Shown: in pieces, positions 8,261-54,385 of the stretch
Numbering within the stretch: position 1 is the first letter of the stretch
How the letters are laid out: each line of letters starts with the position of its first letter
Assembly (NCBI GenBank): GCA_007376405.1
Contig: VMGD01000004.1
Location: 8,960-72,959, forward strand
Length of the DNA stretch: 64,000 nucleotides
Origin: Microgenomates group bacterium Gr01-1014_7
GTDB lineage: Bacteria > Patescibacteriota > Microgenomatia > Daviesbacterales > UBA10151
Reading direction: 5' to 3'
The notes under the pieces: generated by a model
The model's database searches: none
What the model saw: the letters and a program-made list of their open reading frames with translations, nothing else
Told to the model about the DNA's origin: nothing
Position numbers and translations under genes: made by a program

Positions 8261-8319
8261 TATGGGACAATTAATATCTACCCCAACATCTTGTGGGTTG
8301 ACTTTAATACTTTTCGTGT

Positions 8320-8500
8320 TATTCTAGGTAGTGTGGTGTGCCAGTCCGCCTTTGGCGGACCAAGGCGCAAAAAGGGAATGCTGTGTAAATCAGCAGCTGT
8401 GCCGCAACTGTTAGCCCTGAGCGTAGTCGAAGGGTAAAGCCAGGAGACCGACCACAATTTATCCTGTACCGTCTGGTACGGGGATCCCGATTCAGGAGTA
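8320..8500 (+). other. GC-rich structured intergenic element (possible ncRNA or 5' leader)
   Basis: Local GC is far above the flanks. There is a perfect hairpin GTCCGCC-UUUG-GGCGGAC, a terminal helix GUGUGGU...ACCACA, and a hairpin CUGUACC-GUCU-GGUACGG. Confidence 0.25.
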
Positions 8501-31513: not shown

Positions 31514-31898
31514 TTTTTGTGCTTCTGATAAATCCCTGCAAAATTTGATGAGCTAGATTTGCCTGATCTGCTAAAGAATTAAAATCCTTAACATCAAGAT
31601 ATCCTACATCTTTTGCAATAAGTATAAAGTTTTTTAATTCAGTTAATGATCCTTGGGATAAGTAATAGAATTGCAATTTTTCCTTATAAGAATGTCTACC
31701 AAATCCTTCAGCAATATTAGCCGTCACAGATGATGCTGCTCTTCTCATCTGGTCGACCAAAGAATAAGTTTCCTCTTTAGGAAATGTTTTGGTTATTTTG
31801 TAAACCATAACTACTAGAATATGCCCTTCCTGCCAAACTTTCAAATCCGTAAATGTCTGTATCTTTCCATTCTTCATAAAAATAGATTTAAGATTCAT
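31491..31898 (-). CDS. four-helix-bundle protein (23S rRNA intervening-sequence protein family)
   Basis: ..DLKVWQEGH..VYKITKTFPKEETYSLVDQMRRAASSVTANIAEGFGRHSYKEKLQFYYLSQGSLTELKNFILIAKDVGYL.. is the canonical pattern for this family. Confidence 0.7.
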   Translation of the reverse strand: MNLKSIFMKNGKIQTFTDLKVWQEGHILVVMVYKITKTFPKEETYSLVDQMRRAASSVTANIAEGFGRHSYKEKLQFYYLSQGSLTELKNFILIAKDVGYLDVKDFNSLADQANLAHQILQGFIRSTKTFVNHKS

Positions 31899-38568: not shown

Positions 38569-39009
38569 ATGCGCATTATCAACAAAAAAGCTCTTCATAA
38601 TTATCATATTCTTGAGCATCTGGAAGCAGGAATAGTTTTATCCGGAGCAGAGGTTAAATCCATAAGATCCGGAAGGATAGATCTGGGTGAAGCTTATGTG
38701 CGGATTTTAAATGGGGAAGCCCATCTTCTTAATGCCAATATTGCCAGGTTTGCCCAAAGTGCGGACACAGCCTATGATGCTACACAATCCAGAAAGTTGC
38801 TGCTGCATAAGACCCAAATTAATACTTTAATTGGTAAAACCTCAGGTAAGGGGACTACTCTGGTTCCGGTTTCTATTTATGAAAAAAATAACAGGTTTAA
38901 AGTTGAAATTGGTTTGGGAAGAAGCAAAAAAGAATTTGACAAACGCCGTGTTGTCAAAGAGCGCGATCATATCCGCCGCGTTGAACAGGAACTGCGGGGA
39001 AAGGAATAA
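38569..39009 (+). CDS. smpB: SsrA-binding protein
   Basis: ..NKKALHNYHILEHLEAGIVLSGAEVKSIRSGRIDLGEAYVRILNGEAHLLNANI..RKLLLHKTQI..KGTTLVPVSIY.. is canonical SmpB. Confidence 0.9.
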   Translation: MRIINKKALHNYHILEHLEAGIVLSGAEVKSIRSGRIDLGEAYVRILNGEAHLLNANIARFAQSADTAYDATQSRKLLLHKTQINTLIGKTSGKGTTLVPVSIYEKNNRFKVEIGLGRSKKEFDKRRVVKERDHIRRVEQELRGKE

Positions 39010-40217: not shown

Positions 40218-40588
40218 GGGGATGTATAGTCTCGACAGGATTGCTCTTTAAAAACTGCAAGCCGTTAAGGAAACATGTAACGTTAAATATTGTCTCAAAA
40301 CACAAACGGCAACAGAAATGATGCACGTTTCGCATACGTCGTAGCATAAGCTATTGGTGTGGCGATATCTTGGATAATCTTTTTCAGGCCAGATTACCAG
40401 GGTAAGTACCCGGTCTGAATGCAGTTGTGATATCTAATCCATATTCGCAACAAAGAAACTTGGATTAAGTGTTAATCTTCCTGCTTTTAGGTTACAAATT
40501 AACACTCAAAAATATATAAAAGCTAAGCTTGTAGAAGTTTTTTAAGTTACAATTTTGGACGGGGGTGCAAAACCCCCCATCTCCACCC
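40218..40588 (+). ncRNA. ssrA: tmRNA (SsrA)
   Basis: The 5' end GGGGAUGUAUAGUCUCGACAGGAUUGC matches the tmRNA consensus GGGGNUG...UUCGACNGGAUU. The 3' tRNA-like end GGACGGGGGUGCAAAACCCCCCAUCUCCACC matches GGAC-Tstem-Tloop-Tstem-acceptor-ACC. The acceptor strands GGGGAUG/CAUCUCC pair with one G-U pair. A promoter TTGCTT-N16-TATAAT (40182-40209) precedes it and a terminator follows. The possible tag reading frame ends ..ARFAYVVA-stop. Confidence 0.7.
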
Positions 40589-40662: not shown

Positions 40663-41385
40663 TTGGTGAACTTAATATTGGATGTTTTATTTCCCAAAAA
40701 ATGCGTAGGTTGTGGTAAGTTTGACAGCTATTTTTGTTCCGATTGTGTTTCAAATATCAGGCAGGGGGAACTGATTTGTCCTGTTTGTGATATCCCTTCC
40801 GTTTTTGGAGAGACCCACCCCTTTTGTAAGCGGGTATTTGGCCTTGATGGTTTATGGAGTTTAGGGCTGTATCAGGGGTCTTTAAAAAAAGCCATTCAAA
40901 AACTAAAATATAAACCCGCTCTGGTCAGGGATTTTGTCCCGGTTTTGGTAAATATTATAGTTGAGTATTGGACAAAGTACCAGCCTGTTATTTTTGATGA
41001 AATATGTTTTGATCAAATAAAAAAGGATAAAGGGCAGGGGTGGGTAGTTGTACCGGTGCCTCTTTTCTGGTGGAGAGAAAATGATCGTGGTTTTAACCAG
41101 TCAAAACTTATCGGACAATTATTATCCAAAAAATTAGGTTTGGATTACTGCGAAGGTCTTAAACGCATTCGTTATACCAGGTCTCAAGCAAGACTTAAGG
41201 AAAAAGACCGGCGTAAAAATATCCGCGGTGCATTTGAAATTTCTTCCAACTATACCCTATACCCTAAACCCTATACCCTTCTTATCGACGATGTCTGGAC
41301 CACAGGTTCAACCCTTAAAGAATGCTGCTACGTTTTAAAAAGAGCTGGCGCCCAAAAAGTCTGGGCTCTAACTTTGGCTAGATAA
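40663..41385 (+). CDS. comFC: ComF-family phosphoribosyltransferase-like competence protein
   Basis: N-terminal Cys pairs (CVGCG..CSDC..CPVC). C-terminal PRTase motif LLIDDVWTTGSTL. TTG or GTG start. Confidence 0.8.
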   Translation: MVNLILDVLFPKKCVGCGKFDSYFCSDCVSNIRQGELICPVCDIPSVFGETHPFCKRVFGLDGLWSLGLYQGSLKKAIQKLKYKPALVRDFVPVLVNIIVEYWTKYQPVIFDEICFDQIKKDKGQGWVVVPVPLFWWRENDRGFNQSKLIGQLLSKKLGLDYCEGLKRIRYTRSQARLKEKDRRKNIRGAFEISSNYTLYPKPYTLLIDDVWTTGSTLKECCYVLKRAGAQKVWALTLAR

Positions 41386-41418
41386 GGACCAAGTTTTCTG
41401 GTAGAATTGAAGCCGCTT

Positions 41419-41505
41419 GGAGGAGTCGCATAGAGGCCGAGTGCCGCTTCGTGCTAAGAAGCTATACCCGTAAGGGTATCGTGGGTTCGAATCCCACCTC
41501 CTCCG
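41419..41505 (+). tRNA. tRNA-Ser (anticodon GCT)
   Basis: Acceptor GGAGGAG/CTCCTCC. Anticodon loop GTGCTAA. Long variable arm. T-arm GTGGGTTCGAATCCCAC. Confidence 0.85.
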
Positions 41506-41531
41506 CACTTCGACGCGCTCAGTGCAAGCCA

Positions 41532-41619
41532 GGAGGGGTCGCCTAGTGGCTTTATGGCGGAAGTCTTGAAAACTTCTAGGGGCTAACGCTCCTCGTGGGT
41601 CCGAATCCCACCCCCTCCG
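41532..41619 (+). tRNA. tRNA-Ser (anticodon TGA)
   Basis: Acceptor GGAGGGG/CCCCTCC. Anticodon loop CTTGAAA. Long variable arm. T-arm GTGGGTCCGAATCCCAC. Confidence 0.85.
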
Positions 41620-43027
41620 CATAGTCCCGAGTTGGCGGGTCCGCCCGTAGGGCGGACCATTGATTTAGAGCTTCACAATATACTTTTCTGTCTTTTAGTG
41701 TGCTGTTCGAGCCGAAGATTTTTAAAGCAAGTACCTTTTTCTCATCCAAGTCTTTCCCTCTTGCGATATTAGCTACGTTAGCAGCTTCCATAATCCACTC
41801 CTTCATTGGTTCGAGCCAAACATTTTGGGTTTGTTCAAAACTTATGATTTGTTCTTCCAGCGTCTTTTTTAAAGATAGTAGTTCTGACTTTTTTGTAAGG
41901 TAGGAGTCTTTATCAATTACTTCATCTAAGTAGGAATCTAAAAGACGCTGGAGCTTATCACTAATAATTTTTATCTCATCTTTTTTAGTTTGAACAAACA
42001 CCTGGCAGGATTGGGCTACCTCTTTTTCTTCTAAACATAATTTATCTAGCATTTTATCTGCCCAATCCTGTCTCAAAGAAACTGTTAATAAATTATCAGA
42101 AAGTTGTTTATCTACATCTTCTTCCCTGGTAAAAAGCTGGGTACATTTGTGAGTCTTAGACTTTTTCGTACATCTATAGTAAGTGAATCCTTTTTTAATC
42201 TCGGCTGTAATCATATAGCCACATTCACCACATTTAAAAAGTCCCATGTATGGTTTGTGTACCCTCTCTTTGGTAATAACCTTACTTCTTCTTTTAACAA
42301 CTTTCTGCACAGCATCCCACAGTTTCTTTGTAATGATTGGCGAGTGTTTTCCTTCGTGGAGCTCGCCTTTAAATCTAAAATGGCCGTAGTAAAAAGGATT
42401 AGTTAAGATTTGATAAGTTATCTGGTCAGAAGGAATTACTTTACCACCTTCACCCTTTTTAGTTCTTCTGGTGGTAATACCATGTTTAGCCAAAAAGCTA
42501 CCAATATCCATAATTCTATAGTTTCCGGTGGCAAACATCTCAAGAGCCTTTACAACAACAGGAGCTTTCTTTTTATCAACAATAATAGTCTTTCTTCTAT
42601 CACGAATGACATTAAGATAGCCTACAGGAGCCCAACTGGGAAACTCACCTCTTAGAGCTTTTTGGCGTAGTCCTCTTTTGGTATTTTCAGATAAGGAATC
42701 CACATAATATTTACTTTGCCCAAATGCGATTGTCAACATAAATTTACCTTGTGGCGTGGGATCAAACCAGAATTGGGGAAATTTAAGCAATTTTATCTTA
42801 CCAGTATCAACAAGGTAGATGATTTTACCTCCGGCTGGTTCAGCCATCGAACTACTGCCATCAACTACCAGATTGACATCAAAACCACCATAAAATTCTT
42901 CTTTTTTTCGTACAGTTTCCATCCGATTAAAACCGGTTGGGTCGAGTATTCCAGTTTTTATATCTAACCTGGCTGCTACTGGATCTTCTAGTTCTTGCCC
43001 TTGGCTCATTCTGACCAATCCTACCAT
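41576..43027 (-). CDS. large serine recombinase (integrase): catalytic domain, recombinase domain, zinc ribbon, coiled coil
   Basis: N-terminus MVGLVRMSQGQE carries the catalytic Ser in an R-x-S-x-x-Q context. ..FDVNLVVDGSSSM..FDPTPQGKFMLTIAFGQSKYYVDSLSENTKRGLRQKALRGEFPSWAPVGY aligns to the resolvase alpha-E/recombinase junction. Zinc ribbon CGECG..YYRCTKKSKTHKC. The 3' end overlaps tRNA-Ser(TGA) by 44 nt. Confidence 0.7.
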   Translation of the reverse strand: MVGLVRMSQGQELEDPVAARLDIKTGILDPTGFNRMETVRKKEEFYGGFDVNLVVDGSSSMAEPAGGKIIYLVDTGKIKLLKFPQFWFDPTPQGKFMLTIAFGQSKYYVDSLSENTKRGLRQKALRGEFPSWAPVGYLNVIRDRRKTIIVDKKKAPVVVKALEMFATGNYRIMDIGSFLAKHGITTRRTKKGEGGKVIPSDQITYQILTNPFYYGHFRFKGELHEGKHSPIITKKLWDAVQKVVKRRSKVITKERVHKPYMGLFKCGECGYMITAEIKKGFTYYRCTKKSKTHKCTQLFTREEDVDKQLSDNLLTVSLRQDWADKMLDKLCLEEKEVAQSCQVFVQTKKDEIKIISDKLQRLLDSYLDEVIDKDSYLTKKSELLSLKKTLEEQIISFEQTQNVWLEPMKEWIMEAANVANIARGKDLDEKKVLALKIFGSNSTLKDRKVYCEALNQWSALRADPPTRDYAEGVGFGPTRSVSP

Positions 43028-44977
43028 CCTATCTTCTTCTCTAATATAACTTTGAATAATCTTATCAATCTGTTCCTTAATCCTTTTAAGAATATTTCTG
43101 CCTTCACTATCTGTCATCTGATCTACTTCATCCAGCGTGTCTTTTATTTGGCGTGCTTCTTCTATGGGTAAACCTGTTTGATCTGCAAATTCCATAAGCC
43201 ATTTTTCTTCTGCAGAGAGAGATTTTTCTTGAGGTTGTCTTTCCTGGGCTTCTTTTTCAATTTGATCTAGACCATCTTCTGATAAAAGTTCTGGGGAGGT
43301 ATCTTGGAATTGTTCCATCTGATTTTCTCCCTCTAACTGTTCATCACCTGGTTGTTTGACAGGATCACCCTCAGGTGTTGGGTCAAGGATTATCCAATCA
43401 TTTGATCCTATTAACCTTACTTTGGCCCAAGCATGTGCATTGCCTGAATGAAGATGAGCAGTACCATCCTTAGATTTACCAGCTACGTAATATCCATTAA
43501 CACTTCGCCATTCCAAGTCACTAAGGTTTAATCTTTTTAATCCTGCAACAAAGAACTCGCGGGCCAGATAACAATCTGTCAGCTTACTATTAACTATTGT
43601 TTTTAATCGATTGGAGGCTTGACTATCAACATTACTGTACATACCCTCAACTTGCTCATCTTGCGGATAAACAAAGTAGTCGTGTACAAAGGTTTGCCAA
43701 ACACGTGCTTTTTCTAAGGAAGATCCAGGCAAATTTTTAATTCTCTCTATCTCACTATCAATATCTTGAGAGAGAGTTTCAACAGTCCGAGTATCTCTTG
43801 ATGTAATACCCCTTTGTGAAACGTCTCCTTTCCCAATTTCTACCTCATATGGTTGGTTAATGTCAGATTTCAAGAAGATATGACCTTCTTGATCGGCAAA
43901 AACCTCAATTCCCATCCCTTTCATATCATCTAATCCCTGTTGGGTAAGTTGATAATGAGATGTTAAAGGCAAAGCAAAAAGGTTAGTTCCGCTGTACCCG
44001 CTTATTTTTCTATGCGGATTATCTGGTTGCTCAGGTTCAATTTTAAGTTGAACTGATTGTCCCTTGATACTTTGTGTTGGTGATTTGATTAACCTACCTG
44101 TTGCTTCATCTATGAGATCAAAACTGTCGTCTTCGTGATACCCTCCTAAGTAAGGCCCAACCTTAAAAATTGGAGGGCCGCTTTCTCCTTTTTCTTCTTT
44201 ACCTCTATGTTGCTCGTATTCATTAGAAGAAGTGGGTGGAGTAGGAGGTTCCTCAGGTGGTTTAGCTTCTTGTTGATCCTGTGGTTGTTCCTGACCTGGT
44301 TGCTGTTGATCTCCCTGGCTTCTATTCGCTTCCTGATTTCTTAAAAATTCCAACCAAGGTAGAAAACGATTTTCAAACCAAACAGCCTTAGCTTCAAAAG
44401 AAAGATTAGGTGATTCTAAAGCGTCCATTGGAGACACTGACCTGCCTTCAACTTCCTCTTGCCGGGATAGACCTTGTGTCGCTCTTTGCACAATTGGTTC
44501 TACCTGGACATTAGTATTCATTTCTTGGGATAAAATATCGGCAAAAAGCTGCTCTGGTAAACTATTCCCCCGACTGCTTGCAAATTTTGCTAAAAACCCC
44601 TTCGCTAATTCTGCCCTGGCAGGATCACGTCGTTCCAGTGAATTTAAAGCGGAAAGTCGTTCAAATAGAGTCTGAAAGGTTTGTATTTGACTATCTTGTC
44701 GGCCAATACTTCGCCAATTACGGAATGCGGATACTGCTTCAGGTGAATCTAAAGATACCTGTTTTATTATACGTTCTCCTTCTAGGGCAGATGCTCCTTC
44801 TATTTCCGTGCTGGTAAAACCCCGTAATTGCAGAAAGTTTCTATTTACCTGAAGTTGCCATTTATTATCTTGCTTTACTGCTTTAAAAGGGGTAGCCGCC
44901 GAATCATCAAAAGTTACCTCAATTGGAGTAGTGGACATATATCCTTCCCGATCTATTTCTAGCATATAGCTGTCCAT
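43028..44977 (-). CDS. transglutaminase-like cysteine-protease-fold domain protein, read in-frame into the downstream integrase with no stop
   Basis: ..LTDCYLAREFFVAGLKRL..HSGNAHAWAKVRLIGSNDWIILDPTPE matches the Cys-His-Asp core of transglutaminase-like proteins, with an acidic/Gln-rich linker. The six-frame track shows one 1133-aa ORF from 44977 to 41576. Confidence 0.5.
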
Positions 44978-45099
44978 TTTAGCTCACCTTAAAAAACTGA
45001 GCAAATCTTAATCTATAAAGATTCTCAAGAAAATCTGTGCCAGCATATCCTGCAAGCAAAGATATTCTCCAATCATCTCCATCTACAATATTCCAAACA

Positions 45100-45972
45100 T
45101 CATGTAATTTGTTTTGCATTGCTTTTCCTTGGTAAGTAATTTTCTTGAGAAACGATTGAGCGTTTCAGACGCTTCTCAAGTTTTTTTCTTGCTCCTCCGG
45201 CAATATCACCTCCGGCTTTGGCATCACTTTTAAGCTTTGGCATGCCTTTTGAATCTTCATTACGATGAATTTCAGTGGTAGCTCTTTCCCCAAGCATGGT
45301 AAAAATTAGCTCAAAATCATCCATGTGATCACGTAAGTTTTGCTGTTTCAAACCTTTCAGTTTTTTATATTGGCTTGGAGTTATACCAAAAGTAGCATTG
45401 GAGATTTCAGCTGTGAGAATTTCATAATCTTTCTGCAACTCTGCTCCTCTTTTTTGCCATTCATCTGTAAGTTCCTCACGAATAGCAATACCTCTCATCC
45501 GCTTTTCAATCCAGTCATCGGGATATCCTTTGGCTTTATACAAAGCTCTGGTTCTTTTTGTTGCCAACTCCGGGTCTTCAATCTCTTGAATTCTTTCATA
45601 TCCCACTCTTGCTAACCAGCGCTTAAAAGGTTCTGCTTTGGGGGAAGGGATTGACTGGATAATTCGGAAAACCCCTTCTGTATTAGCACAGTTCATCCTC
45701 TGTTTACCACCTTGAGTTTCAACTGGAAGGGTATGGACAATTTGTCCATACCCCTTGGATAATTCATTGTCTCGACGGCGCATTTTGTTAATATAGTCTT
45801 TTGGATTTGATGAATCTGTCAAAGCAACTACCACGTCTTCTACTACAAACCACCACTCATTGTTATGAATAGTTTTGCGAATTGCTTTATTTCTAAAAAT
45901 GGCAATTTTGGTTTCCTCTGACATTATCTCAATTCTAGCACAGAATCGGCCAATTTCCACCATTTTGGCCAA
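45100..45972 (-). CDS. Bro-N domain protein (phage antirepressor/DinD-like)
   Basis: ..FRNKAIRKTIHNNEWWFVVEDVVVALTDSSNPKDYINKMRR.. matches the Bro-N domain. Confidence 0.65.
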   Translation of the reverse strand: MAKMVEIGRFCARIEIMSEETKIAIFRNKAIRKTIHNNEWWFVVEDVVVALTDSSNPKDYINKMRRRDNELSKGYGQIVHTLPVETQGGKQRMNCANTEGVFRIIQSIPSPKAEPFKRWLARVGYERIQEIEDPELATKRTRALYKAKGYPDDWIEKRMRGIAIREELTDEWQKRGAELQKDYEILTAEISNATFGITPSQYKKLKGLKQQNLRDHMDDFELIFTMLGERATTEIHRNEDSKGMPKLKSDAKAGGDIAGGARKKLEKRLKRSIVSQENYLPRKSNAKQIT

Positions 45973-45999
45973 GTTCCAGATAATCTTGAGTTGTGGCGG

Positions 46000-46960
46000 T
46001 CCGCCCGCCCCCGCCCTGTTTGGGATAATTTCCCTTAAAGGAGGGCTGCCGTCAGAAAAATATTCAGTATAGGAATTTTTAATAACTGGTTTGGATAGGC
46101 AGCCCGACCATCGCGAGCCCCGAGAGAATTACTAAATGATTTTTAAAAAGACGGGGCGAGCCCATCGGAATTAGTTGCGTAGCGTACTTCTCGAGAAGTA
46201 CGCGAGCGATGGGAAACAGATAAGGGTATAAATTGCGGCGGGGGAGGTAGCGGAATTACCCCCGCAACGGCAGGAGAAAATAAAACAGAATAATGAGAGG
46301 CGAGGAGCGGCCGAAGGCATATTTTGTTTTTCGCTCCTCGCCGAGGTAGAGACTGTAAAGCATAACTAGAAAACCCTGAATATGGGAAAGGCTCCCCCTA
46401 GGGAGCCCTCTCGCCCAAAAGCGGGGGTGCCGCCACAAATAATTTGGGGGGGAGGGATGATATGGAATTTTTAACAGACTACATTAATTTCTTTTTGTTT
46501 GTGTTTCTTTTTTTGAGGGAGTAAAAAGTGTCCGCGTATGGGAGGGTTGGGACAAGGACACTATAAATAATTTTTTCCTTTTCTTCCCCTTTCTTTTTTA
46601 GCGAAAATTTCCAACGCTGATGGAAGCGAGCCATGTACCAGACGGTACGTGGCGACTGTGTCCCGCCGAAATCCCGAGCGTAGCGAGGGATGAAGGCGGA
46701 GCAGCGACAATTGTTTTTGTTCTGGCGGTTGGGTAATGCAGAGAGGTTTGAATTTAGGTTGAGGTCGGATGCGAGATTGAGGTTGGCGTCGTAAATGGTT
46801 GGAAGCGAGAGAGTTTGCGACATTCATTTTCCCCTTAACCCCTTTTTCTGTCGCAAACTCTTGAGCGACTGTCGCACTATGAAGCGTTAGTAATTTTTGG
46901 TAAAATATGTTCGAGCGATATCATATAGTCGCACAGGTAGTCTAATTTTCTTACTAAAAA
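46000..46960. other. ~950-bp non-coding, locally GC-rich region dense in perfect palindromes
   Basis: GCGTACTTCTCGAGAAGTACGC at 46180-46201. GGCTCCCCCTAGGGAGCC at 46389-46406. GAGTTTGCGACA at 46813-46824 pairs with TGTCGCAAACTC at 46849-46860. No ORF longer than 115 aa. Confidence 0.3.
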
Positions 46961-46965
46961 TATAC

Positions 46966-46993
46966 TTGACAACTGGAATAACCCTGCTATAAT
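46966..46993 (+). promoter_or_regulatory. sigma70-type promoter of the ATPase gene
   Basis: TTGACA at 46966-46971, a 16-nt spacer, then TATAAT at 46988-46993, with the ATG at 47004. Confidence 0.5.
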
Positions 46994-47003
46994 AGTAGAT
47001 AAT

Positions 47004-48278
47004 ATGGATTTTATACAACGTCAGGTGTATTTTCAGCTGTTACAACATCTTGACAAGCCGGAGATTTCAGTTTTACTGGGACCAAGACAAGCCGGTAAGA
47101 CCACACTTATTAAAAGATTACAAGAAGAGCTTAATACACAGAATCAACCCAGCTTATTCTTAAACCTTGATATTATCGAGGACAGGCAGTTTTTTACCAG
47201 TCAGCATACATTGCTTGATTTTATAGAAAAAAAGGCCGGTAAAAAGGCTTATGTGTTTATTGATGAAATTTCCCGATTGGAAAATGCCGGTCTGTTTTTA
47301 AAAGGGCTATACGACTTACAATCCAACCATAAATTTGTGGTAACAGGATCTGGTTCTTTAGAATTGAAGGAAGAGGTTATTGAGCCTTTAACTGGGAGGA
47401 AAAAGATCTTCTATTGTTTTCCTTTATCATTTACTGAGTTTGCTGCCTATAAACTGGGTGTATTAAGCAAAAATCCGGATCAGGCATACTCGGAAGTAAC
47501 TAAAATTTTGATTACCCAACCTTTGATAAGAAATAGGATAATCAGCGAATATGTAAATTTTGGTGGTTACCCGCGGGTGGTTTTGGCTACCACAGAACAA
47601 GAAAAAACTGAAATACTTAAAGAGATATATATCAGTTATTTAGAAAAAGACATTGGGTTGTTACTAAATGTAGAGAAAGAATACGCATTTGGAAACCTGG
47701 TTAGGGTTCTGGCATCACAAGTCGGGAATCTGGTTAATCGGGCGGAAATGGCTTCAACATTAGGTTTGACCGAAAAGACTGTTGAAAGATACTTATATTT
47801 ATTGGAAAAAACCTTTGTGGTTGGGCTGGTCAGACCTTTTTATCGTAATGTACGCAAAGAGCTTATCAAATCCCCTAAGGTCTATTTCGTTGATCTTGGG
47901 TTTTTGTATATAGCTCAAGAAATTTTACCGACAATCCAAAGGCAACCAGCAGGCAATGTATTCGAAAATGCCTGTTTTTTAAGATTAAATGAGTTGGATT
48001 TGATCAAACCGCCACAGTTTTGGCGAACCAAATCCGGCGCAGAAGTAGATTTTGTGATAACTGACAAAGAAACAGGCAAAACTATTCCTATAGAAGTGAA
48101 AACTACTTCTAAGAAGAATTTAGGTAAAAGCTTAATTAGTTTTATAAAAAACTATCAGCCGGAAAAGGGGTTTATCTATTTTCAAAGCGGCCATGGAAAG
48201 CTTGAGTTTAAAGTTTACAAAAAAACTACTGTGAATTTCATTCCTTATCATATTTTACCGGATAAAGCGATCGCTTAA
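47004..48278 (+). CDS. AAA-superfamily ATPase of the AAA_14/DUF4143 family
   Basis: Walker A LLGPRQAGKTTLIKRL, Walker B VFIDEI, and a C-terminal DUF4143-like region. Confidence 0.75.
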   Translation: MDFIQRQVYFQLLQHLDKPEISVLLGPRQAGKTTLIKRLQEELNTQNQPSLFLNLDIIEDRQFFTSQHTLLDFIEKKAGKKAYVFIDEISRLENAGLFLKGLYDLQSNHKFVVTGSGSLELKEEVIEPLTGRKKIFYCFPLSFTEFAAYKLGVLSKNPDQAYSEVTKILITQPLIRNRIISEYVNFGGYPRVVLATTEQEKTEILKEIYISYLEKDIGLLLNVEKEYAFGNLVRVLASQVGNLVNRAEMASTLGLTEKTVERYLYLLEKTFVVGLVRPFYRNVRKELIKSPKVYFVDLGFLYIAQEILPTIQRQPAGNVFENACFLRLNELDLIKPPQFWRTKSGAEVDFVITDKETGKTIPIEVKTTSKKNLGKSLISFIKNYQPEKGFIYFQSGHGKLEFKVYKKTTVNFIPYHILPDKAIA

Positions 48279-48292
48279 ATTAAGCTGCCCAG

Positions 48293-48508
48293 ATGTTGGG
48301 GGTTAATCCGGAGACATTGAGTCGGTGGGATAGGCAAGGAAGATTAAAGGCAATAAAGATTGGTAAAAAGAGATCACAAAAACTTGGAATTAAAGTACCC
48401 CATAAGGATTTTTCTTGGAACCAATTCCTCTTGGAGCTTAAACAGCTAAACTCAATTATACCAGCTTCCACCTTATCTAACCAAACTTATCTTACTAGTA
48501 GGTATTAG
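48293..48508 (+). CDS. small HTH_17 (excisionase/AlpA-like) DNA-binding protein, possibly N-terminally truncated
   Basis: MLGVNPETLSRWDRQGRLKAIKIGKKR matches the HTH_17 recognition region. An in-frame stop lies 12 nt upstream of the ATG. Confidence 0.35.
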   Translation: MLGVNPETLSRWDRQGRLKAIKIGKKRSQKLGIKVPHKDFSWNQFLLELKQLNSIIPASTLSNQTYLTSRY

Positions 48509-50320
48509 AACCATTATGTTTGTTTTGACGATAACCTTATTTTTTTTGAAATAACTACTTACTTTTTTAGCGAAAACTTCCAACCTGTCAATTCCTGCCA
48601 ATCTCCTGGTAAAGTATCCAGACAATATTTCCAGTTCGCCATTAACTTGTGAGTATTTTGCTTCCAAAGTCGGGGAAATTGCAGAAAGTGTGTGCCAGAG
48701 TAAATATTTCCAACCTTCAGGGTCAGCAGCTTCTAACGAGAGTCTAGGAATCTTTCTTCCTTCTAAGATTTGTATTCTACCACTCATAATTGTTTCTAAA
48801 TATTTATTAAACTCCATTTGTTCATCCTCTCTCTCAGGAAATTGTGGCAGGCCATCATAAAATATTACCTCCCCTCCATTTCTGGAAAATCGAGAGATCT
48901 CTCTGGCAACACTCACAGGTATTACCATAGCCCTCGGAAGGTACAAACTGTCATGATCAGGGAGACTATTTAAAACTCCGACGTCGTTTAGTAAATCAAA
49001 TTGTAAATCTAAACCCAAAGAAGTTCGGGCTGCTTCCAACCGACCGCACACATCTTGCATAGCTCGCGAAATTCTTTTGGCCTCTCTTTCATCTGCAGGG
49101 TTGTAAGAAGCCTGGATTGCCGGAACAGGATAGTAAACCGCAAATCTTGAAGTCTGATCATTACGCAAAACACCATCTTTAAACTCCCTAGTAATTTGAC
49201 CAAAACTATCCCAATAAGGAGGTTCCATAAGAGAAGGCGGTGCATCATGTCTTCTTTCTCCTTCAATAGAAGAAAAAAGTGCATGAGGGATTAAAACAGT
49301 AGCACCGTTTTTAATCTGCCAGCGATTTACTTCCCTGATATGATCTACCGTTAAACCCCAACCAAAAGAACCGAAGGTTTCTGCCATAACTTCAGGCTTA
49401 CCGTATAGTTTGGCAACAGATTTAGCAAACCTTGCACTTATAACATCCTTTTGTGGAGAAAAACCACCAATAAGATCGTATCCTGCCCAATCGAAGTTAC
49501 CCAATGCAGAAAAAGGATCAGCCTGACTTTTTACAGCAGCTAAAGGATCTTCCTCACTTAAAAGCTGTCCTATGAAAAGTACTCCGTGACTTTTACACCA
49601 GTTATGCAGCTGATCTAAAAAATTATTATTATAAAGATGCCCGAGAGTTTGAAAATATCGTAACCTTGCCGACCTATTGATCCAATCCTGTCTTCCCCAG
49701 ATATGAAGAAAGTCAGAATCCAGAGGCACTCCGTGCATCCTACGGTAAACCTCGGGTAATTCCGAAGTATAGGGAACAGCTCCGCCGTCAACTACACCAA
49801 AAAGGTTGGCATACATTCCCGGTTCATCACAATAAAACCCTGCTATTACTCCATTTTCAAAATAGTGAGGAAAACGATCATAGTATGCCTGATGAGTTGA
49901 TTGAATAAAAGTACCTGTGGCATCCTCTGATAAAACATCCACATAACTTCCAAATGAATATGGCGGGTGGAACCTACTCTCTCTTACCTTAAGATTACCT
50001 TCTCTATCAGGCTTTACAACCTTGGCTATAAACTCTTTTTGTTTAGTAACCTGCCCTCCTGCAATGCCAGATGGCCAGTCCTTTTCATCTGTAAACCAAA
50101 CTCTCATCCCCAACTGTTCAGCTCTACTTAAGGCATATCCTGCATGATAAAACCATTCCTCATTAAGATAATCTGTTAATCCAAACCTTGGATGAATGAT
50201 AACTTCTGTTATACCCCTTTGGGAAATTTCATCCATCTGGTGACCTATTTTCTCTTTATCTAATTTCTTATCATTCCAAAACCAGAATGGAATAACCCTC
50301 CCGCCTTCTATATTATTCAT
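48473..50320 (-). CDS. putative TIM-barrel glycoside-hydrolase-like protein
   Basis: ..RVIPFWFWNDKKLDKEKIGHQMDEISQRGITEVIIHPRFGLTDYLNEEWF.. GC is higher than the flanks. Confidence 0.4.
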   Translation of the reverse strand: MNNIEGGRVIPFWFWNDKKLDKEKIGHQMDEISQRGITEVIIHPRFGLTDYLNEEWFYHAGYALSRAEQLGMRVWFTDEKDWPSGIAGGQVTKQKEFIAKVVKPDREGNLKVRESRFHPPYSFGSYVDVLSEDATGTFIQSTHQAYYDRFPHYFENGVIAGFYCDEPGMYANLFGVVDGGAVPYTSELPEVYRRMHGVPLDSDFLHIWGRQDWINRSARLRYFQTLGHLYNNNFLDQLHNWCKSHGVLFIGQLLSEEDPLAAVKSQADPFSALGNFDWAGYDLIGGFSPQKDVISARFAKSVAKLYGKPEVMAETFGSFGWGLTVDHIREVNRWQIKNGATVLIPHALFSSIEGERRHDAPPSLMEPPYWDSFGQITREFKDGVLRNDQTSRFAVYYPVPAIQASYNPADEREAKRISRAMQDVCGRLEAARTSLGLDLQFDLLNDVGVLNSLPDHDSLYLPRAMVIPVSVAREISRFSRNGGEVIFYDGLPQFPEREDEQMEFNKYLETIMSGRIQILEGRKIPRLSLEAADPEGWKYLLWHTLSAISPTLEAKYSQVNGELEILSGYFTRRLAGIDRLEVFAKKVSSYFKKNKVIVKTNIMVLIPTSKISLVR

Positions 50321-50445
50321 TTTTTTATACTACGCGGCAGTTGTAGGATCTTACTACCTAATTCTAAAAATATCAATTCCTTTTGGTGGAGGAGTTTGTC
50401 CAGATAAATGTCGTTCTCGTCTAGTCATAATAAATATTCTGTTGA

Positions 50446-51429
50446 TTATACTTCATCGAATATCTCTTCTTTATTGTTACTGCTTTTCATAAGTTTTACC
50501 TTTAAGTTCTGAGTTCTCATTTTATTTTCATCACTTGTCCAAATTCCATTATATTTAATTGAGACCTTTGCGAATTTTGGACTAATATTATCAGCAAAAA
50601 TACTGAGATAGAATTCATATTCACCATTAGGATAAATATCAGAGAAAGTATTTGGTTTAATAGAACAGGTTCGAAAACCCTTACTGAATTCTCTATACCT
50701 TGTTCCATCCAGTGGATTAAGGGGTAGTAATTTATCTGCATAATCACTTATCTTTTGAGGTTCTGGTACCTCAAACAGATCTAATGTTCTAAATGTTTCT
50801 TGGGGTATTCGAATAACTCGCTCACTCCCAGCTTCCCCAAATGCCCAATGTAGGTTTAATGGTAAGAATGGTCTTTGTAAAGGTACTTTAGTTTTAGTCT
50901 TTTCCACAACTACTTCAACATTTTCTAAGGTTACTTTGCCTCTATTCCATATTTTTAGCCGAATGTAGTAGGTGGGAACAAATTCCTGAATCACATAACT
51001 AGTATTATTTTGAATATACTGAGCAGCTATGTTCATAATAGTTGAGTGGTAGTTGTCTTTTTCATTTTCCTTGAATTCAATATCTAAGATTGGGCGATCT
51101 CTGTATTTTGTAGGATTGTCTTTTATTAAGACAGAATAGAAAAGAGTGAAGAAAGTGGCTAGGAAAATCAGAATTTGAATAAGGTCAGCAGTTTGTATAA
51201 ATTTTTTGGGTAATAAGAATTCAATCGCAAATATAGTGAAACTAGCAATTATTAAAACAGCAGTAAAAATTAAAACTCGGTCGGAATTGGCCTTGAAAAA
51301 ATCCAAGCAGTAGCTTAATAAAAGTCTAAGTGTTTTTGAAGTTAAAATTTTCGGCAAGATTATTCTGCTAAATATAATTCCAAGGGAGTAACAAAATAAT
51401 CCAAATACCAGAAAAAGAGTTCTGTCCAT
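50446..51429 (-). CDS. hypothetical membrane protein (3 N-terminal TM helices)
   Basis: Hydrophobic N-terminus, then a soluble C-terminal domain. Confidence 0.4.
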   Translation of the reverse strand: MDRTLFLVFGLFCYSLGIIFSRIILPKILTSKTLRLLLSYCLDFFKANSDRVLIFTAVLIIASFTIFAIEFLLPKKFIQTADLIQILIFLATFFTLFYSVLIKDNPTKYRDRPILDIEFKENEKDNYHSTIMNIAAQYIQNNTSYVIQEFVPTYYIRLKIWNRGKVTLENVEVVVEKTKTKVPLQRPFLPLNLHWAFGEAGSERVIRIPQETFRTLDLFEVPEPQKISDYADKLLPLNPLDGTRYREFSKGFRTCSIKPNTFSDIYPNGEYEFYLSIFADNISPKFAKVSIKYNGIWTSDENKMRTQNLKVKLMKSSNNKEEIFDEV

Positions 51430-51739
51430 AAAAATTGGGCAGAATTTATATAATTATAGCATTTTACAGGGTTAATATTTGGACAATCGGACACATATAA
51501 AAAAGGCATCAATTATACTTGACAGTCTAATTTGAAAGTAGTATAAATTAGACAGTGAGGTTCAATTTATGCTACTTATTTCAGATAATCTTCTTATAAA
51601 ATATCTTAAGGTTAATGAACAGTTTAAACTTGATGAGTTTATCAATAAGAAACTTTTTATTGAAATAAAATAATACTAATTATTCACTTAAGTGGATTTT
51701 AAAGATAAAAAATTGTATAATCCAGCCATAGAATGAGAG

Positions 51740-52396
51740 ATGCAGAATAAAATGGCAACTGAACAAAAGGGACAACAAAGTCCAGCTACCTACGAACGTA
51801 CGATCGGAGGTACGGCTGGTTGGAAAATAGGAGTAGATGCTAGTGAACCACTTCCAGAATTTATTCAAGAATATACAAGGGATGTTCTAACTTGGTTTAA
51901 TCCAGCTCAGGGTTGGCAAATAACAGAGGTAAGAGCAGTGTTACTTGATCCCGCTCAAATTAAATATGCAGCAGAGCAAAGAACAGACGCCCCAATCGAA
52001 CTTTCTCCTGACCTATTAACACTTGGTTTTTCACTGAGAGCCGCAAATCCTCCCTTAAGAAGAAATTGGAGACGTAATCCTATTGGTTTAGATATGGGAA
52101 AAGTTTTTTCTCCAGATTTTGAAGGACAAATTGCTGTAGGAGAAGATGGTAGATCAGCTGATCTGTTACCTAGAAAAATTGGAACTTCTTATCGTCTAGA
52201 AGAAGCATTAAGAGAACTTTCCAACACATTTTACTTATCAGGTGTATTGGTTCATGCAGCCTATAAACAACCAGTTAGATTTAACTTTGTGCCTCCGCAC
52301 ACTCCACTAGAAGAAGACGCTACACGAGAGCCTTTCCCCAAAAATATTTCTATGATGGTGATTTTGAGAAATTTATATACAAAAGAGGATGGATGA
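51740..52396 (+). CDS. hypothetical protein
   Basis: 218-aa ORF with moderately elevated GC. Confidence 0.4.
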   Translation: MQNKMATEQKGQQSPATYERTIGGTAGWKIGVDASEPLPEFIQEYTRDVLTWFNPAQGWQITEVRAVLLDPAQIKYAAEQRTDAPIELSPDLLTLGFSLRAANPPLRRNWRRNPIGLDMGKVFSPDFEGQIAVGEDGRSADLLPRKIGTSYRLEEALRELSNTFYLSGVLVHAAYKQPVRFNFVPPHTPLEEDATREPFPKNISMMVILRNLYTKEDG

Positions 52397-52796
52397 CTTA
52401 AATAGACAGATTATTGAGTTGAAAGCCAGGAGAGACCAAATAGCTGAAAAGAATTTTAGAGGAGTCCTGAGTGATACTTTAGCTAAAGAATTATTGGATA
52501 AAAATGAAAAAAAGGAATCCGAACTCACCCTAGAATTACATAGTTACCAAAATAACCAGGAAGATATAATGAAGATTGTAAGGCATAGCCTATCTATTTT
52601 AGAAGATATAGGCAGTGCGTGGCTAAGAGTTGATTTACAGGTGAAGAAAAGGTTCCAAAAATTCCTTTTTCCCCAAGGGTTGCCTTTTAATGGAGATAAT
52701 TTTGGAACCCCTATTTTAGCCTATTGTATCAAGCCAAAGTGGAGCATAACTCCTCAAAAATCCCTAATAGTACCAGCTAGAATAAGAACTTTTTGA
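52389..52796 (+). CDS. hypothetical protein (coiled-coil N-terminus)
   Basis: Overlaps the upstream gene by 8 nt. Confidence 0.4.
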   Translation: MDDLNRQIIELKARRDQIAEKNFRGVLSDTLAKELLDKNEKKESELTLELHSYQNNQEDIMKIVRHSLSILEDIGSAWLRVDLQVKKRFQKFLFPQGLPFNGDNFGTPILAYCIKPKWSITPQKSLIVPARIRTF

Positions 52797-52874
52797 TTTT
52801 GTCCTTGATAAACCTTAACCTTCATTGAAATTAATACTTGCAAAAAAATTACAAAAATATGGTATATTATCAAT

Positions 52875-53057
52875 ATGCTGATATCAAATATTCTTAATTC
52901 ATATATAAATAAATGGGTAGCACTTACATCAGATAGAAAAAAGGTAGTGGCCGCAGCACCTGATCTTAAAAAGCTTGATATTAAGGTTAAGAAGGCAAAA
53001 ATGGGAGATGTAATATATCATTACGTTTTACCATTTGATAAATCTTTCTCACCTTAA
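52875..53057 (+). CDS. small hypothetical protein co-transcribed with the aspartic protease
   Basis: 60 aa. Its stop abuts the start of the next gene. Confidence 0.35.
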   Translation: MLISNILNSYINKWVALTSDRKKVVAAAPDLKKLDIKVKKAKMGDVIYHYVLPFDKSFSP

Positions 53058-53485
53058 TGTCGAAAATTAGTTTTTCCTATTTTGTACAGGATAAATTAGA
53101 TCCCAAAACTAATAAAGTTATCGGCCACATTTTAAGACCATATATTCCCATAAGGCTTTCTCTTTATCATGGTAATCCTACAAATCATGTAAACGCCTTA
53201 GTGGATTCCGGTTCGGATAGAAATCTATTCCCTAAACATTGGGGAGATATCTTAGGGATTAATTTTAGAAAAATAAAGTCGGTTCAGATTTCCGGAATAG
53301 GCAACATAACTGTTATGGCTTATCCCGTTAAAATAAATATCTGGGTTAATAATAAAAAATATGAAACTGATGCTGATTTTAGTCCGCAACAACAAACTCC
53401 ATTGTTAGGAAGAAGCGGATTTTTTAATTTATTTAAAGAAATCATTTTTGAAGAAAACAAAAGTTATCTGCATATAATCATATAA
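53057..53485 (+). CDS. retropepsin-like (clan AA) aspartic protease
   Basis: ..NALVDSGSDRNLFP.. matches the D-S-G-S catalytic motif. Confidence 0.55.
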   Translation: MSKISFSYFVQDKLDPKTNKVIGHILRPYIPIRLSLYHGNPTNHVNALVDSGSDRNLFPKHWGDILGINFRKIKSVQISGIGNITVMAYPVKINIWVNNKKYETDADFSPQQQTPLLGRSGFFNLFKEIIFEENKSYLHIII

Positions 53486-53848
53486 GGTGCATAAACTAGA
53501 TATACCTTGGAGATGTATCAGGAGCAGTTGCAGGAATTGGAACTTTTAAAACAATCTGTTTTACACCAAGCATTTCAGGGGGAATTAGCAGATGAGAAAA
53601 AGGAGAAAAACTAAGCCTAAGTTTAAAGTAATATATGAGTACATTCCTAGTCCGGATGCTGCAGAACGGGTTATACCCAAAATACTTCAATTTGTAATAT
53701 TCAATCAAGATTTTGGGTTCAAGGTTATCCGCCACAGGCGGATGTTCTTATATTTGGCTGTTAAGGTCTCAAGTTGCAAAATAAGCTCCTTATCAACACA
53801 GGCACCGCCCCTTTACACCTTAACTTTTTAGGGTTAAACTAAAGATAA

Positions 53849-54385
53849 ATGCCAAAGAATAAAGTTTTGCATCCTAAATTAGGTGAGGCAGGGGAGGTGA
53901 GAACCTTGCTTTCCTGGGAAGCTCCTTCCCGCCCTTTTAGAAAAAAAGACCGCTCTTACTATACCACCTTGGCCATTATTGTCATTTTACTGGTTTTGAT
54001 TCTACTTCTGGCCAAAGAGTTTCTCCTGATTGCCACTATTTTATCTTTGGCTTTTGTGGCCTATGTTTTGGCTTTTGTGCCTCCTCACCATATTCAATAC
54101 AGGATCTCCACCCAGGGTGTAACTATCAATGAGGATTTTTATTTCTGGCATTTTCTGGATGCTTTCTGGTTTAAAGAAAAAGAAGGACATAAAATTTTGA
54201 TAATTCAAACAAGATTCCGTTTTCCGGCACAACTAATGCTGGTACTGGCAAATCACGAAGTAGAAAAAGTGAAAAAGATCGTAGCCCGCTTCTTGCCTTT
54301 TGTGGAAGTGCCATATAAATCATGGATGGAACGCTGGAGTGAGGGTCTTCAAAAAAACTTCCCCCTGGAAAACGTCCATCGTTGA
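53849..54385 (+). CDS. hypothetical membrane protein (2 TM; PH-like C-terminus?)
   Basis: LAIIVILLVLILLLAKEFLLIATILSLAFVAYVLAFV. Confidence 0.4.
   Translation: MPKNKVLHPKLGEAGEVRTLLSWEAPSRPFRKKDRSYYTTLAIIVILLVLILLLAKEFLLIATILSLAFVAYVLAFVPPHHIQYRISTQGVTINEDFYFWHFLDAFWFKEKEGHKILIIQTRFRFPAQLMLVLANHEVEKVKKIVARFLPFVEVPYKSWMERWSEGLQKNFPLENVHR

Follow-up and report, generated by a model that had tools for sequence, protein, structure and literature searches.

Large serine integrases such as those of phiC31, Bxb1 and Listeria A118 (the LI integrase) carry a Resolvase domain, a recombinase domain and a zinc ribbon in that order, and their genes lie at the edge of the element. The same domain order and gene position are found in a family of elements of Patescibacteria, a decayed copy of which is described here from a metagenome-assembled genome (MAG), Microgenomates group bacterium Gr01-1014_7. 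The DNA analysed, hereafter the window, is a stretch of 64,000 nucleotides of contig VMGD01000004.1. Within it, a single open reading frame (ORF) of 1133 aa on the minus strand (41576..44977), labelled in GenBank as TSC87878.1, 'MAG: recombinase [Microgenomates group bacterium Gr01-1014_7]', joins the first part of a transglutaminase-like/vWA gene to the last part of a serine integrase gene that abuts tRNA-Ser(tga). This ORF is most likely a chimeric pseudogene produced by one internal deletion in an integrated element that is now immobilised.

The family differs from the phage systems in its target, as it inserts at the 3' (CCA) ends of tRNA genes of nearly any kind rather than at one protein-coding or intergenic site, and in a second, inverted attP-like junction accompanied by long perfect inverted repeats; it has one match in IMG/VR, and the window copy is without its catalytic domain. 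In the LI integrase system, the zinc-ribbon motif lies 5 bp further out in attP than in attB (PMC3783163). This shift resembles the position of the motif GTTCGA in the present family, which is 4 nt further out in the element's own arm, here called X, than in the tRNA.

The islands and prophages that tyrosine integrases place at tRNA 3' ends (P4-like) share other traits with these elements: an integrase abutting the tRNA, absence in relatives, candidate defence cargo, and a tRNA end preserved by the element. They differ in that the enzyme here is a serine recombinase and that no long direct tRNA repeat marks the far boundary, where X is a look-alike with just 3-10 nt in common with the tRNA end. 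TnpX (Tn4451), TndX (Tn5397), CcrAB (SCCmec) and XisF are likewise large serine recombinases of non-viral elements, which move via circular intermediates; model scores far under cut-offs, the tRNA-end target and the repeat architecture separate the family from them. In the yeast 2-micron FLP/FRT and the Hin/Gin systems, identical inverted repeats bracket segments near the recombinase gene. The likeness to these flip-flop systems consists of repeat-bracketed segments and the occurrence of both cassette orientations in nature, while enzyme class and site size differ and the present elements are only presumed to invert. Finally, decayed 'grounded' integrative elements show the same kept junctions and lost integrase active site, with the difference that the truncation here gives an in-frame chimera with a truncated cargo gene.

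Two truncated genes in one reading frame

The frame is open from end to end, as an earlier note on this DNA had stated, and its 3' end lies, as also claimed there, over the 3' end of tRNA-Ser(tga) (41532..41620, plus strand; ARAGORN; Rfam 49.1 bits): the final 45 nt of the ORF (14 sense codons plus stop) run antisense to this tRNA. The tRNA would form the host half (B arm) of attL, the element beginning directly 3' of it, and is preceded by tRNA-Ser(gct) (41419-41506, plus strand; ARAGORN, Rfam). Integrases of the Microgenomates branch of the family take their stop codon from the opposite strand of the host tRNA, so that their C-terminal tail varies with the insertion site (P0001-P0013; P0002 has 582 aa).

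The integrase remnant spans 41576..42832 (minus strand; ORF aa 716-1133), as delimited by Pfam, the NCBIfam XisF model, alignments and tblastn. According to the earlier note, the C-terminal 484 aa make up a large serine recombinase that is complete, with catalytic serine, coiled coil, recombinase domain and Zn ribbon. The two latter domains are present in the expected order and above their Pfam cut-offs, Recombinase (PF07508) at aa 803-897 (window 42287-42571, E=4e-13) and Zn_ribbon_recom (PF13408), a zinc beta-ribbon, at aa 912-963 (window 42089-42244, E=7e-9). They are followed by a C-terminal region and the tail read from the tRNA antisense strand. Residues ~965-1075, behind the zinc ribbon, where the coiled-coil insertion that controls directionality would be expected, align without gaps with intact homologues. 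The enzyme is nevertheless not complete. Of the 145 profile positions of the Resolvase catalytic domain, just the last 39 (106-144) are retained; this piece is the end of the domain with helix E (aa 740-778), and the XisF model is matched from profile position 91 on. The remnant scores 68 bits with XisF and 63 bits with NCBIfam CcrB, far under cut-offs of 375 and 900 bits, and the ORF contains neither the Y-x-R-x-S-T-x-x-Q nucleophile motif nor the D-R-L-x-R arginines of a functional integrase.

The extent of the loss is clear from intact homologues. A search with the C-terminal 433 aa returned 6273 matches, of which the best 120 were examined; these are 386-607 aa long, and nearly all carry Resolvase, recombinase and zinc-ribbon domains. 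The closest are P0001 (92% identical), P0002 (90%) and P0003 (87%). Identity with them begins abruptly at 'GGKIIYLVDTG', ORF residue 716, and the first 96 residues of the homologues, including the stretch YARKSTDVEDKQ (or FLYARKSTDVEDKQ) with the nucleophile serine and HPDRLARN, are missing. In a PDB profile search, residues 1-96 of the family align with active-site segments of TP901-1, TnpX and conjugative-transposon recombinases; a PDB sequence search with the remnant gave nothing useful. By tblastn, P0001 aa 97-501 matches the window at 92% identity, starting with residue 97 at window position 42832, and no other integrase piece, codons 1-96 included, occurs in the 64-kb window. Judged by its sequence, the remnant's recombinase is inactive.

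The serine that the earlier note took for the catalytic one, in MVGLVRMSQGQE (aa 651-662, window 42992-43027), lies outside the integrase part. As a recombinase active site this motif was rejected, since Pfam and alignments place it in the conserved 'GLVxMSxGQxLEDPV' block of an ~880-aa transglutaminase-vWA family. The upstream module (42833..44977, minus strand) comprises ORF aa 1-715, where the whole protein would have some 880. Residues 1-716, used as a query, returned 15 homologues of 870-891 aa (P0122-P0135 among them), one 408-aa match and the ORF itself; none of the 15 homologues has a recombinase domain, and VWA matches are recorded in P0122 and P0123. The alignment is collinear up to 'DGSxSM..xGGK', whereupon the homologues run ~170 aa further through a vWA domain. 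In the ORF, the MIDAS motif DGSSS (DxSxS) is found at aa 706-710 (window 42848-42862), the gene is cut 6 residues later, and the sequence departs from the family alignment after G717, leaving no complete, ~180-aa Rossmann-like vWA domain. The upstream protein of ~650 aa proposed earlier is thus there as a module, yet truncated, with ~170 aa of its vWA domain lost.

The Cys-His-Asp core predicted for this protein held up. It falls at aa 422-533 (window 43379-43714), and Cys469, His515 and Asp532 are invariant in an alignment of 7 family members. Pfam Transglut_core (PF01841) scores the ORF at a sub-threshold 16.6 bits, against a gathering cut-off of 23, and reaches E <0.01 in 1 of the 7 members; a related 875-aa protein at locus L116 has a recorded PF01841 match. 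A PDB sequence search with the module gave no match. An AlphaFold2 model of aa 380-715 has a mean predicted local distance difference test score (pLDDT) of 61, with 80-90 in the core, and Foldseek matched it to LapG, TgpA, the putative cysteine protease 3isr, arylamine N-acetyltransferases and TG2/TG3 (E 2e-3 to 0.3, probabilities up to 1.0). Together with the invariant triad, the predicted fold gives moderate support to a transglutaminase-like module with a papain-like Cys-His-Asp core.

The two genes meet at 42822..42832 (minus strand), in GGAGGTAAAAT, an 11-nt microhomology encoding GGK-I/V, as located by DNA and protein alignments. The window tracks the transglutaminase/vWA gene to ...GCTGAACCAGCC and the integrase gene from GGAGGTAAAATCATCTACC...; GGnGGnAAr stands at the join in both parent families, so the join falls within up to 11 nt of microhomology. 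A second fragment of either parent gene, the vWA 3' end included, was not found in the 64-kb window. A join made by the assembly, either of separate genes or by loss of a stop or frameshift, might be suspected, as the source is a MAG and the inverted repeats of the family do break assemblies at the X boundary. Two contig records, both in the 50-200 kb class, carry the identical 1133-aa ORF, however, which is listed in NCBI (TSC87878.1) as well as in ENA (contig ERZ27284378:k139_285137, 115,303 bp). The NCBI and ENA versions apparently stem from separate assemblies, since the NCBI and ENA contigs differ at a paralogous locus (93.7 kb versus 79.1 + 9.3 kb), and the 11 shared bases are far fewer than k=139, so that a de Bruijn assembler could not have made the join. 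A lost stop codon, moreover, cannot account for two partners that are both cut in mid-domain and whose missing halves are absent from the window. An artefact is therefore very improbable.

The alternatives of a genuine fusion, a recent junction and a missed stop had been left side by side in the earlier note. Of these, the recent junction is the right one. No stop codon is 'missing': the two parent genes had not been neighbours, and the stretch that separated them was deleted. In the integrase remnant, the changes found only in the window copy, polarised against P0001-P0003, number 16 synonymous and 9 non-synonymous, a ratio of non-synonymous to synonymous rates (dN/dS) of ~0.15. Intact integrase genes have 0.09-0.23, a range that covers this value; the truncation is therefore recent relative to the ~2% divergence. 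The same low ratio, which looks like purifying selection, would be expected of a functional, selected fusion, in which the DNA-binding half of the integrase anchors a transglutaminase-like enzyme. Such a protein might regulate by binding att sites, inhibit the paralogous integrase in a dominant-negative manner, or bring the enzyme to DNA. The frame open for 1133 codons and the intact DNA-binding domains and helix E, with attL and attR both kept, also speak for it. A recent deletion predicts low dN/dS equally well, however, and both modules are cut inside domains, the vWA domain 6 residues past its MIDAS and the Resolvase domain at position ~97 of 145. The architecture is also a singleton: an N-terminal transglutaminase domain, searched for as the earlier note had proposed, is found in none of the best 120 of 6273 integrase homologues, nor is the fusion seen among the 15 homologues of the upstream module. 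We give a functional fusion very little credence.

An integrase family at the 3' ends of tRNA genes

To place the truncated copy, it was compared with its relatives. A scan of GTDB species representatives gave at least 593 loci of the integrase family, of which 80 were fetched; about 90 related loci were compared in all. The comparison shows a canonical element that runs, from the tRNA gene outward, through an arm Y that abuts the tRNA, the integrase gene in antisense orientation, a leader, an inverted copy of Y (Y'), a boundary followed by an inverted arm X1, the cargo, and a second arm, X2, which points to the boundary with the flank. A convergent tRNA gene stands at the integrase 3' end in ~55 of the 80 loci, with nearly all specificities represented, and the loci without one are mostly on contigs that end there. 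Integrases ~90% identical to the window remnant adjoin tRNA-Leu(caa) and tRNA-Leu(taa); the presence of near-identical integrases behind different tRNAs argues that the unit moves between tRNAs.

Y is formed by the 3'-terminal ~70-200 nt of the integrase coding sequence and reaches the CCA position of the tRNA, and Y' is located 25-560 nt upstream of the integrase start codon. Of the 74 loci with sufficient flank, 70 have this inverted repeat around the integrase gene, mostly at 97-100% identity; in 66 of those loci it measures at least 60 nt, and up to 210 nt. In L005, L091, L112 and L114 the arms are a perfect inverted repeat of 72-126 nt. X, a segment of ~130-280 nt, is conserved outside Y', with the consensus ...TTGATAAAATrAGTTCGAGCg-n5-GTAAAnnnn, the boundary and then CACCA, an end that resembles a tRNA T-loop with acceptor and CCA. 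Among 21 long loci, 16 have a second, inverted copy of X with a precise boundary, X2, at 1.2-9.3 kb from X1. In most of these, X1 and X2 are identical over 128-280 nt, to the same boundary plus 3-10 shared nt, past which one copy runs into Y' and the other into unrelated DNA. The start of GTTCGA lies 19 nt before the boundary in the tRNA T-loop and 23 nt before it in X (~20 of 23 loci).

From these alignments, the arms can be read as attL (B/P'), an internal inverted attP-like junction (P/P') and attR (P/B'), with a crossover that would fall at the CCA position and with segments that may flip. Three loci have the integrase cassette in the opposite orientation beside the tRNA. Contig starts k-4 nt before Y' were considered as a sign of population heterogeneity and rejected, X being an inverted repeat of at least k with 3 nt shared past the boundary. 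At L080 and L081, X, the integrase and tRNA-Phe are 94-96% identical and the DNA upstream of X is not common to both, while a 1.6-kb region is inverted and lies on opposite sides, suggesting rearrangement around the elements. X also holds promoter-like hexamers that point across the boundary (in the window, TTGGTA-16-TATCAT at 46897-46924).

With one IMG/VR match to the integrase family, against at least 593 GTDB loci, and no phage structural genes seen, a phage origin was rejected. Among tRNA-linked mobile elements of Patescibacteria, this family seems to be the dominant one, and almost none of it is in viral databases. In the literature searchable here, we found no description of tRNA-targeting serine recombinases in the Candidate Phyla Radiation (CPR), Patescibacteria or Saccharibacteria, which is no proof of novelty. 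Tentatively, and at slightly less than even odds, we propose an undescribed and very common element of Patescibacteria that inserts behind the CCA of almost any tRNA, with X as its attP arm, an inverted attP-like junction, and a cassette and cargo that are bracketed by perfect inverted repeats and may flip. While the chimera by itself is an ordinary result, the element family looks new and merits separate study. For the study and engineering of serine integrases it would offer targeting of the tRNA T-arm and CCA, a look-alike end with a 4-nt register shift, an att part inside the integrase coding sequence, and nested perfect inverted repeats.

In other members (L082, L074, L088, L079, L081, L084), what lies between X2 and X1 varies widely, including alanine racemase, GMP synthase and prolyl-tRNA synthetase, sometimes as a single such gene, as well as GNAT, a PDC-S37-like helicase-nuclease and a trypsin-like protein. 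Both elements of the present MAG, the window copy and a second one at tRNA-Thr(ggt), carry the transglutaminase/vWA operon next to X, which argues that the bracketed DNA is cargo and not chromosome. If this holds, the elements would be gene shuttles of minimal-genome organisms, with cargo ranging from candidate defence genes to single housekeeping-type genes, and a testable route for the exchange of single genes and defence systems among gene-poor episymbionts.

The island behind tRNA-Ser(tga) and the origin of the chimera

Twenty metagenomic loci with relatives of the neighbouring ComF-like protein were compared with the window. The conserved order is g620-smpB-tmRNA-comF-tRNA-Ser(gct)-tRNA-Ser(tga)-[178-aa gene]-tRNA-Arg(gcg)-tRNA-Ser(cga). 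L094 and L109 have 125 nt, and L097 has 577 nt, between tRNA-Ser(tga) and the 178-aa gene (window 53849-54385); these are distant relatives, with comF 55-80% identical. In the window, the same distance is 12.2 kb. The island genes have homologues in none of the ComF-locus relatives, and homology resumes near 53800, ahead of the 178-aa gene; 41621 to ~53800 is therefore an insertion at the tRNA 3' end. The segment is thus absent from relatives, as the earlier note had asked to be checked, and its proposal of a small integrative element stands as to the element but not as to the size, the island measuring 12.2 kb and the element recognisable after the deletion 5.3 kb. No direct repeat of the tRNA-Ser 3' end that could serve as the far att site occurs in 41300-52000. 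A decayed Y-like stretch (GGCnCCGCC...TTTAGrGTTAmAC) at window 53740-53850 recurs in L094 (10911-10990) directly after tRNA-Ser(tga), which suggests earlier occupancy and repeated use of this tRNA as an insertion site.

Within the island, both outer ends of the canonical layout can be recognised. The Y arm (41621..41692, plus strand), the antisense of the last integrase codons with WSALRADPPTRD, abuts the tRNA and is 97% identical to L005 143-212 and 91% to L112 564-708, the similarity to L112 continuing to 41770. X2 (46683..46935, plus strand), the far element end and presumed P arm of attR, is 93% identical to L005 1-141, 83% to L112 318-563 and 82% to L116 8218-8334, and its tRNA-3'-end-like terminus reads ...TTGGTAAAATATGTTCGAGCGATATCATATAGTCGCACAG or ...GTTCGAGCGATATCATATAGTCGCACAG up to the boundary. 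Homology to intact members puts the tRNA/Y junction at 41620/41621 and the X2/flank junction at 46935/46936, where crossover presumably took place. Just one Y, next to the tRNA, and just one X occur in the window, and this X is oriented as X2 should be. The canonical inverted repeats are absent, as are Y', X1, the leader, integrase codons 1-96 and the distal cargo; Y' and X1 are expected to be missing if they lay inside the deleted segment.

This arrangement can be explained by a single event. In the ancestor, the transglutaminase-like/vWA gene, followed by its operon partners, would have been cargo co-directional with the integrase. A deletion running from the vWA GGK codons to those at integrase residue 97, via the 11-nt microhomology, would then have taken out the 3' end of the vWA gene and the cargo downstream of it, together with X1, Y', the leader and integrase codons 1-96. 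The join would have been in frame by chance, so that the transglutaminase start now reads 716 + 417 codons into the antisense strand of tRNA-Ser(tga). A precedent for the order before the deletion is given by L116, whose integrase is 72% identical; it comprises small ORFs, the 875-aa Transglut_core/vWA-like gene, a 996-aa gene, a reverse transcriptase with Avd, the X1/Y' junction, the integrase and tRNA-Val. Its transglutaminase-like gene and integrase are co-directional, and the 130 nt upstream of the former are 83% identical to window 44972-45100.

With neither a recombinase nucleophile nor a complete vWA domain, the element would be unable to move by itself, attL (tRNA/Y) and attR (X2/flank) being what remains. 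The same MAG has a second element, at tRNA-Thr(ggt). Its integrase, P0010 (TSC88236.1), is intact, as is a transglutaminase/vWA paralogue, P0129 (TSC88230.1), which lies six protein accessions away. To judge from the resemblance of integrase (64% identical) and Y (89% over 66 nt), mobilisation in trans by P0010 is conceivable.

The orientation of this paralogous cargo bears on a further explanation, an inversion that broke both the integrase gene and a transglutaminase/vWA gene of opposite orientation, its reciprocal product being lost or outside the window. The operon at tRNA-Thr appears to be divergent from its integrase, as such an event would need, and an inversion would likewise give X its observed orientation. 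Integrase 5' and vWA 3' fragments are absent from the 64-kb window, however, and a second precise loss, beginning exactly at the X boundary, would be required; L116, in turn, shows that the co-directional layout, for which one deletion is enough, occurs in the family. We consider an inversion quite unlikely.

Several points weigh against the deletion. The junction is seen in assemblies alone, the two assemblies probably go back to one data set, and at this contig they are taken as independent by analogy with the paralogous locus. The ancestor is a reconstruction, and its parental microhomology is deduced from relatives, the closest transglutaminase/vWA homologue being 63% identical. As the cargo of the paralogous element appears in the opposite orientation (on the strength of a 62-nt contig-end overlap), a cargo flip must be assumed. 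Continued selection on the remnant would likewise be compatible with its 417 open codons and low dN/dS, and the DNA from X2 to the right island boundary (46936-53800) is not accounted for by the layout. On balance, the annotation 'recombinase' of TSC87878.1 is better treated as a chimeric pseudogene than as a new transglutaminase-recombinase architecture.

Cargo and neighbouring features

At intact loci, the transglutaminase/vWA gene heads an operon with a ~270-aa protein, a ~680-aa AAA_5 ATPase and a paralogous ~295-aa protein. This transglutaminase/vWA-AAA_5 operon has no PADLOC match and was rejected as a known defence system, and it is absent from the 80 GTDB loci as a general cargo of the family. 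In relatives, an RVT_1 reverse transcriptase and/or bAvd adjoin transglutaminase/vWA operons (L007 6721-7773, L116 6211-7608). RVT_1 and bAvd are hallmarks of diversity-generating retroelements, and an Avd-like gene is found at window about 31576-31898 (L001 23080-23402).

Next to the chimera, the Bro-N antirepressor-like neighbour named in the earlier note is confirmed as a Bro-N/Ant-like cargo gene (45100..45972, minus strand), with a full-length match to the PADLOC candidate PDC-S13 (E=2e-109) and to phrog_15286. The ~1-kb non-coding stretch proposed beside it is likewise real, 45973-47003 containing no gene supported by Pfam or Rfam. Its part up to X2 (45973..46682) has unsupported ORFs of 60-114 aa and is rich in GC hairpins, in an AT-rich genome. 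A perfect palindrome, CGTACTTCTCGAGAAGTACG, lies near 46186, and a 65-nt piece (46181-46244) is also present beside X in the paralogous element of the same genome (L002 654-717). As a known RNA this stretch was rejected, its Rfam match being at chance level only. The segment 45979-46007, ATAATCTTGAGTTGTGGCGGTCCGCCCG, is the best local match in the window to the start of Y, ATAGTCCCGAGTTGGCGGGTCCGCCCG; as 3 of 30 shuffles reach a similar score, it was not used as a Y remnant.

Inside Y, and thus inside the coding sequence, a GC-rich 9-bp hairpin, GGTCCGCCC-GTA-GGGCGGACC (41638..41658, plus strand), has a terminator-like form and may end the tRNA transcript; an equivalent GC hairpin is conserved across the family.

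Beyond X2, the further island DNA (46936..53800) holds several unknown genes and is perhaps older inserted DNA. It includes a sigma-70 promoter matching at 12/12 positions, TTGACA-16-TG-TATAAT (46966-46993, plus strand), 31 nt past the X2 boundary and before an AAA_14/DUF4143 ATPase gene (47004-48278) that matches PADLOC PDC-S01 (E=1e-85). A truncated HTH_17 fragment of excisionase/MerR type follows (48293-48508, plus strand); this 71-aa ORF starts at profile position 10 of 51 and is probably another truncated island gene.

On the other side of the tRNA genes, smpB is at 38569-39009, and the tmRNA gene lies between it and the comF-like gene (40218-40588, plus strand; Rfam 119 bits), where ARAGORN did not report it. 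A cobalamin riboswitch is found further upstream in the window, at 8317-8470 (plus strand; Rfam 58.5 bits).

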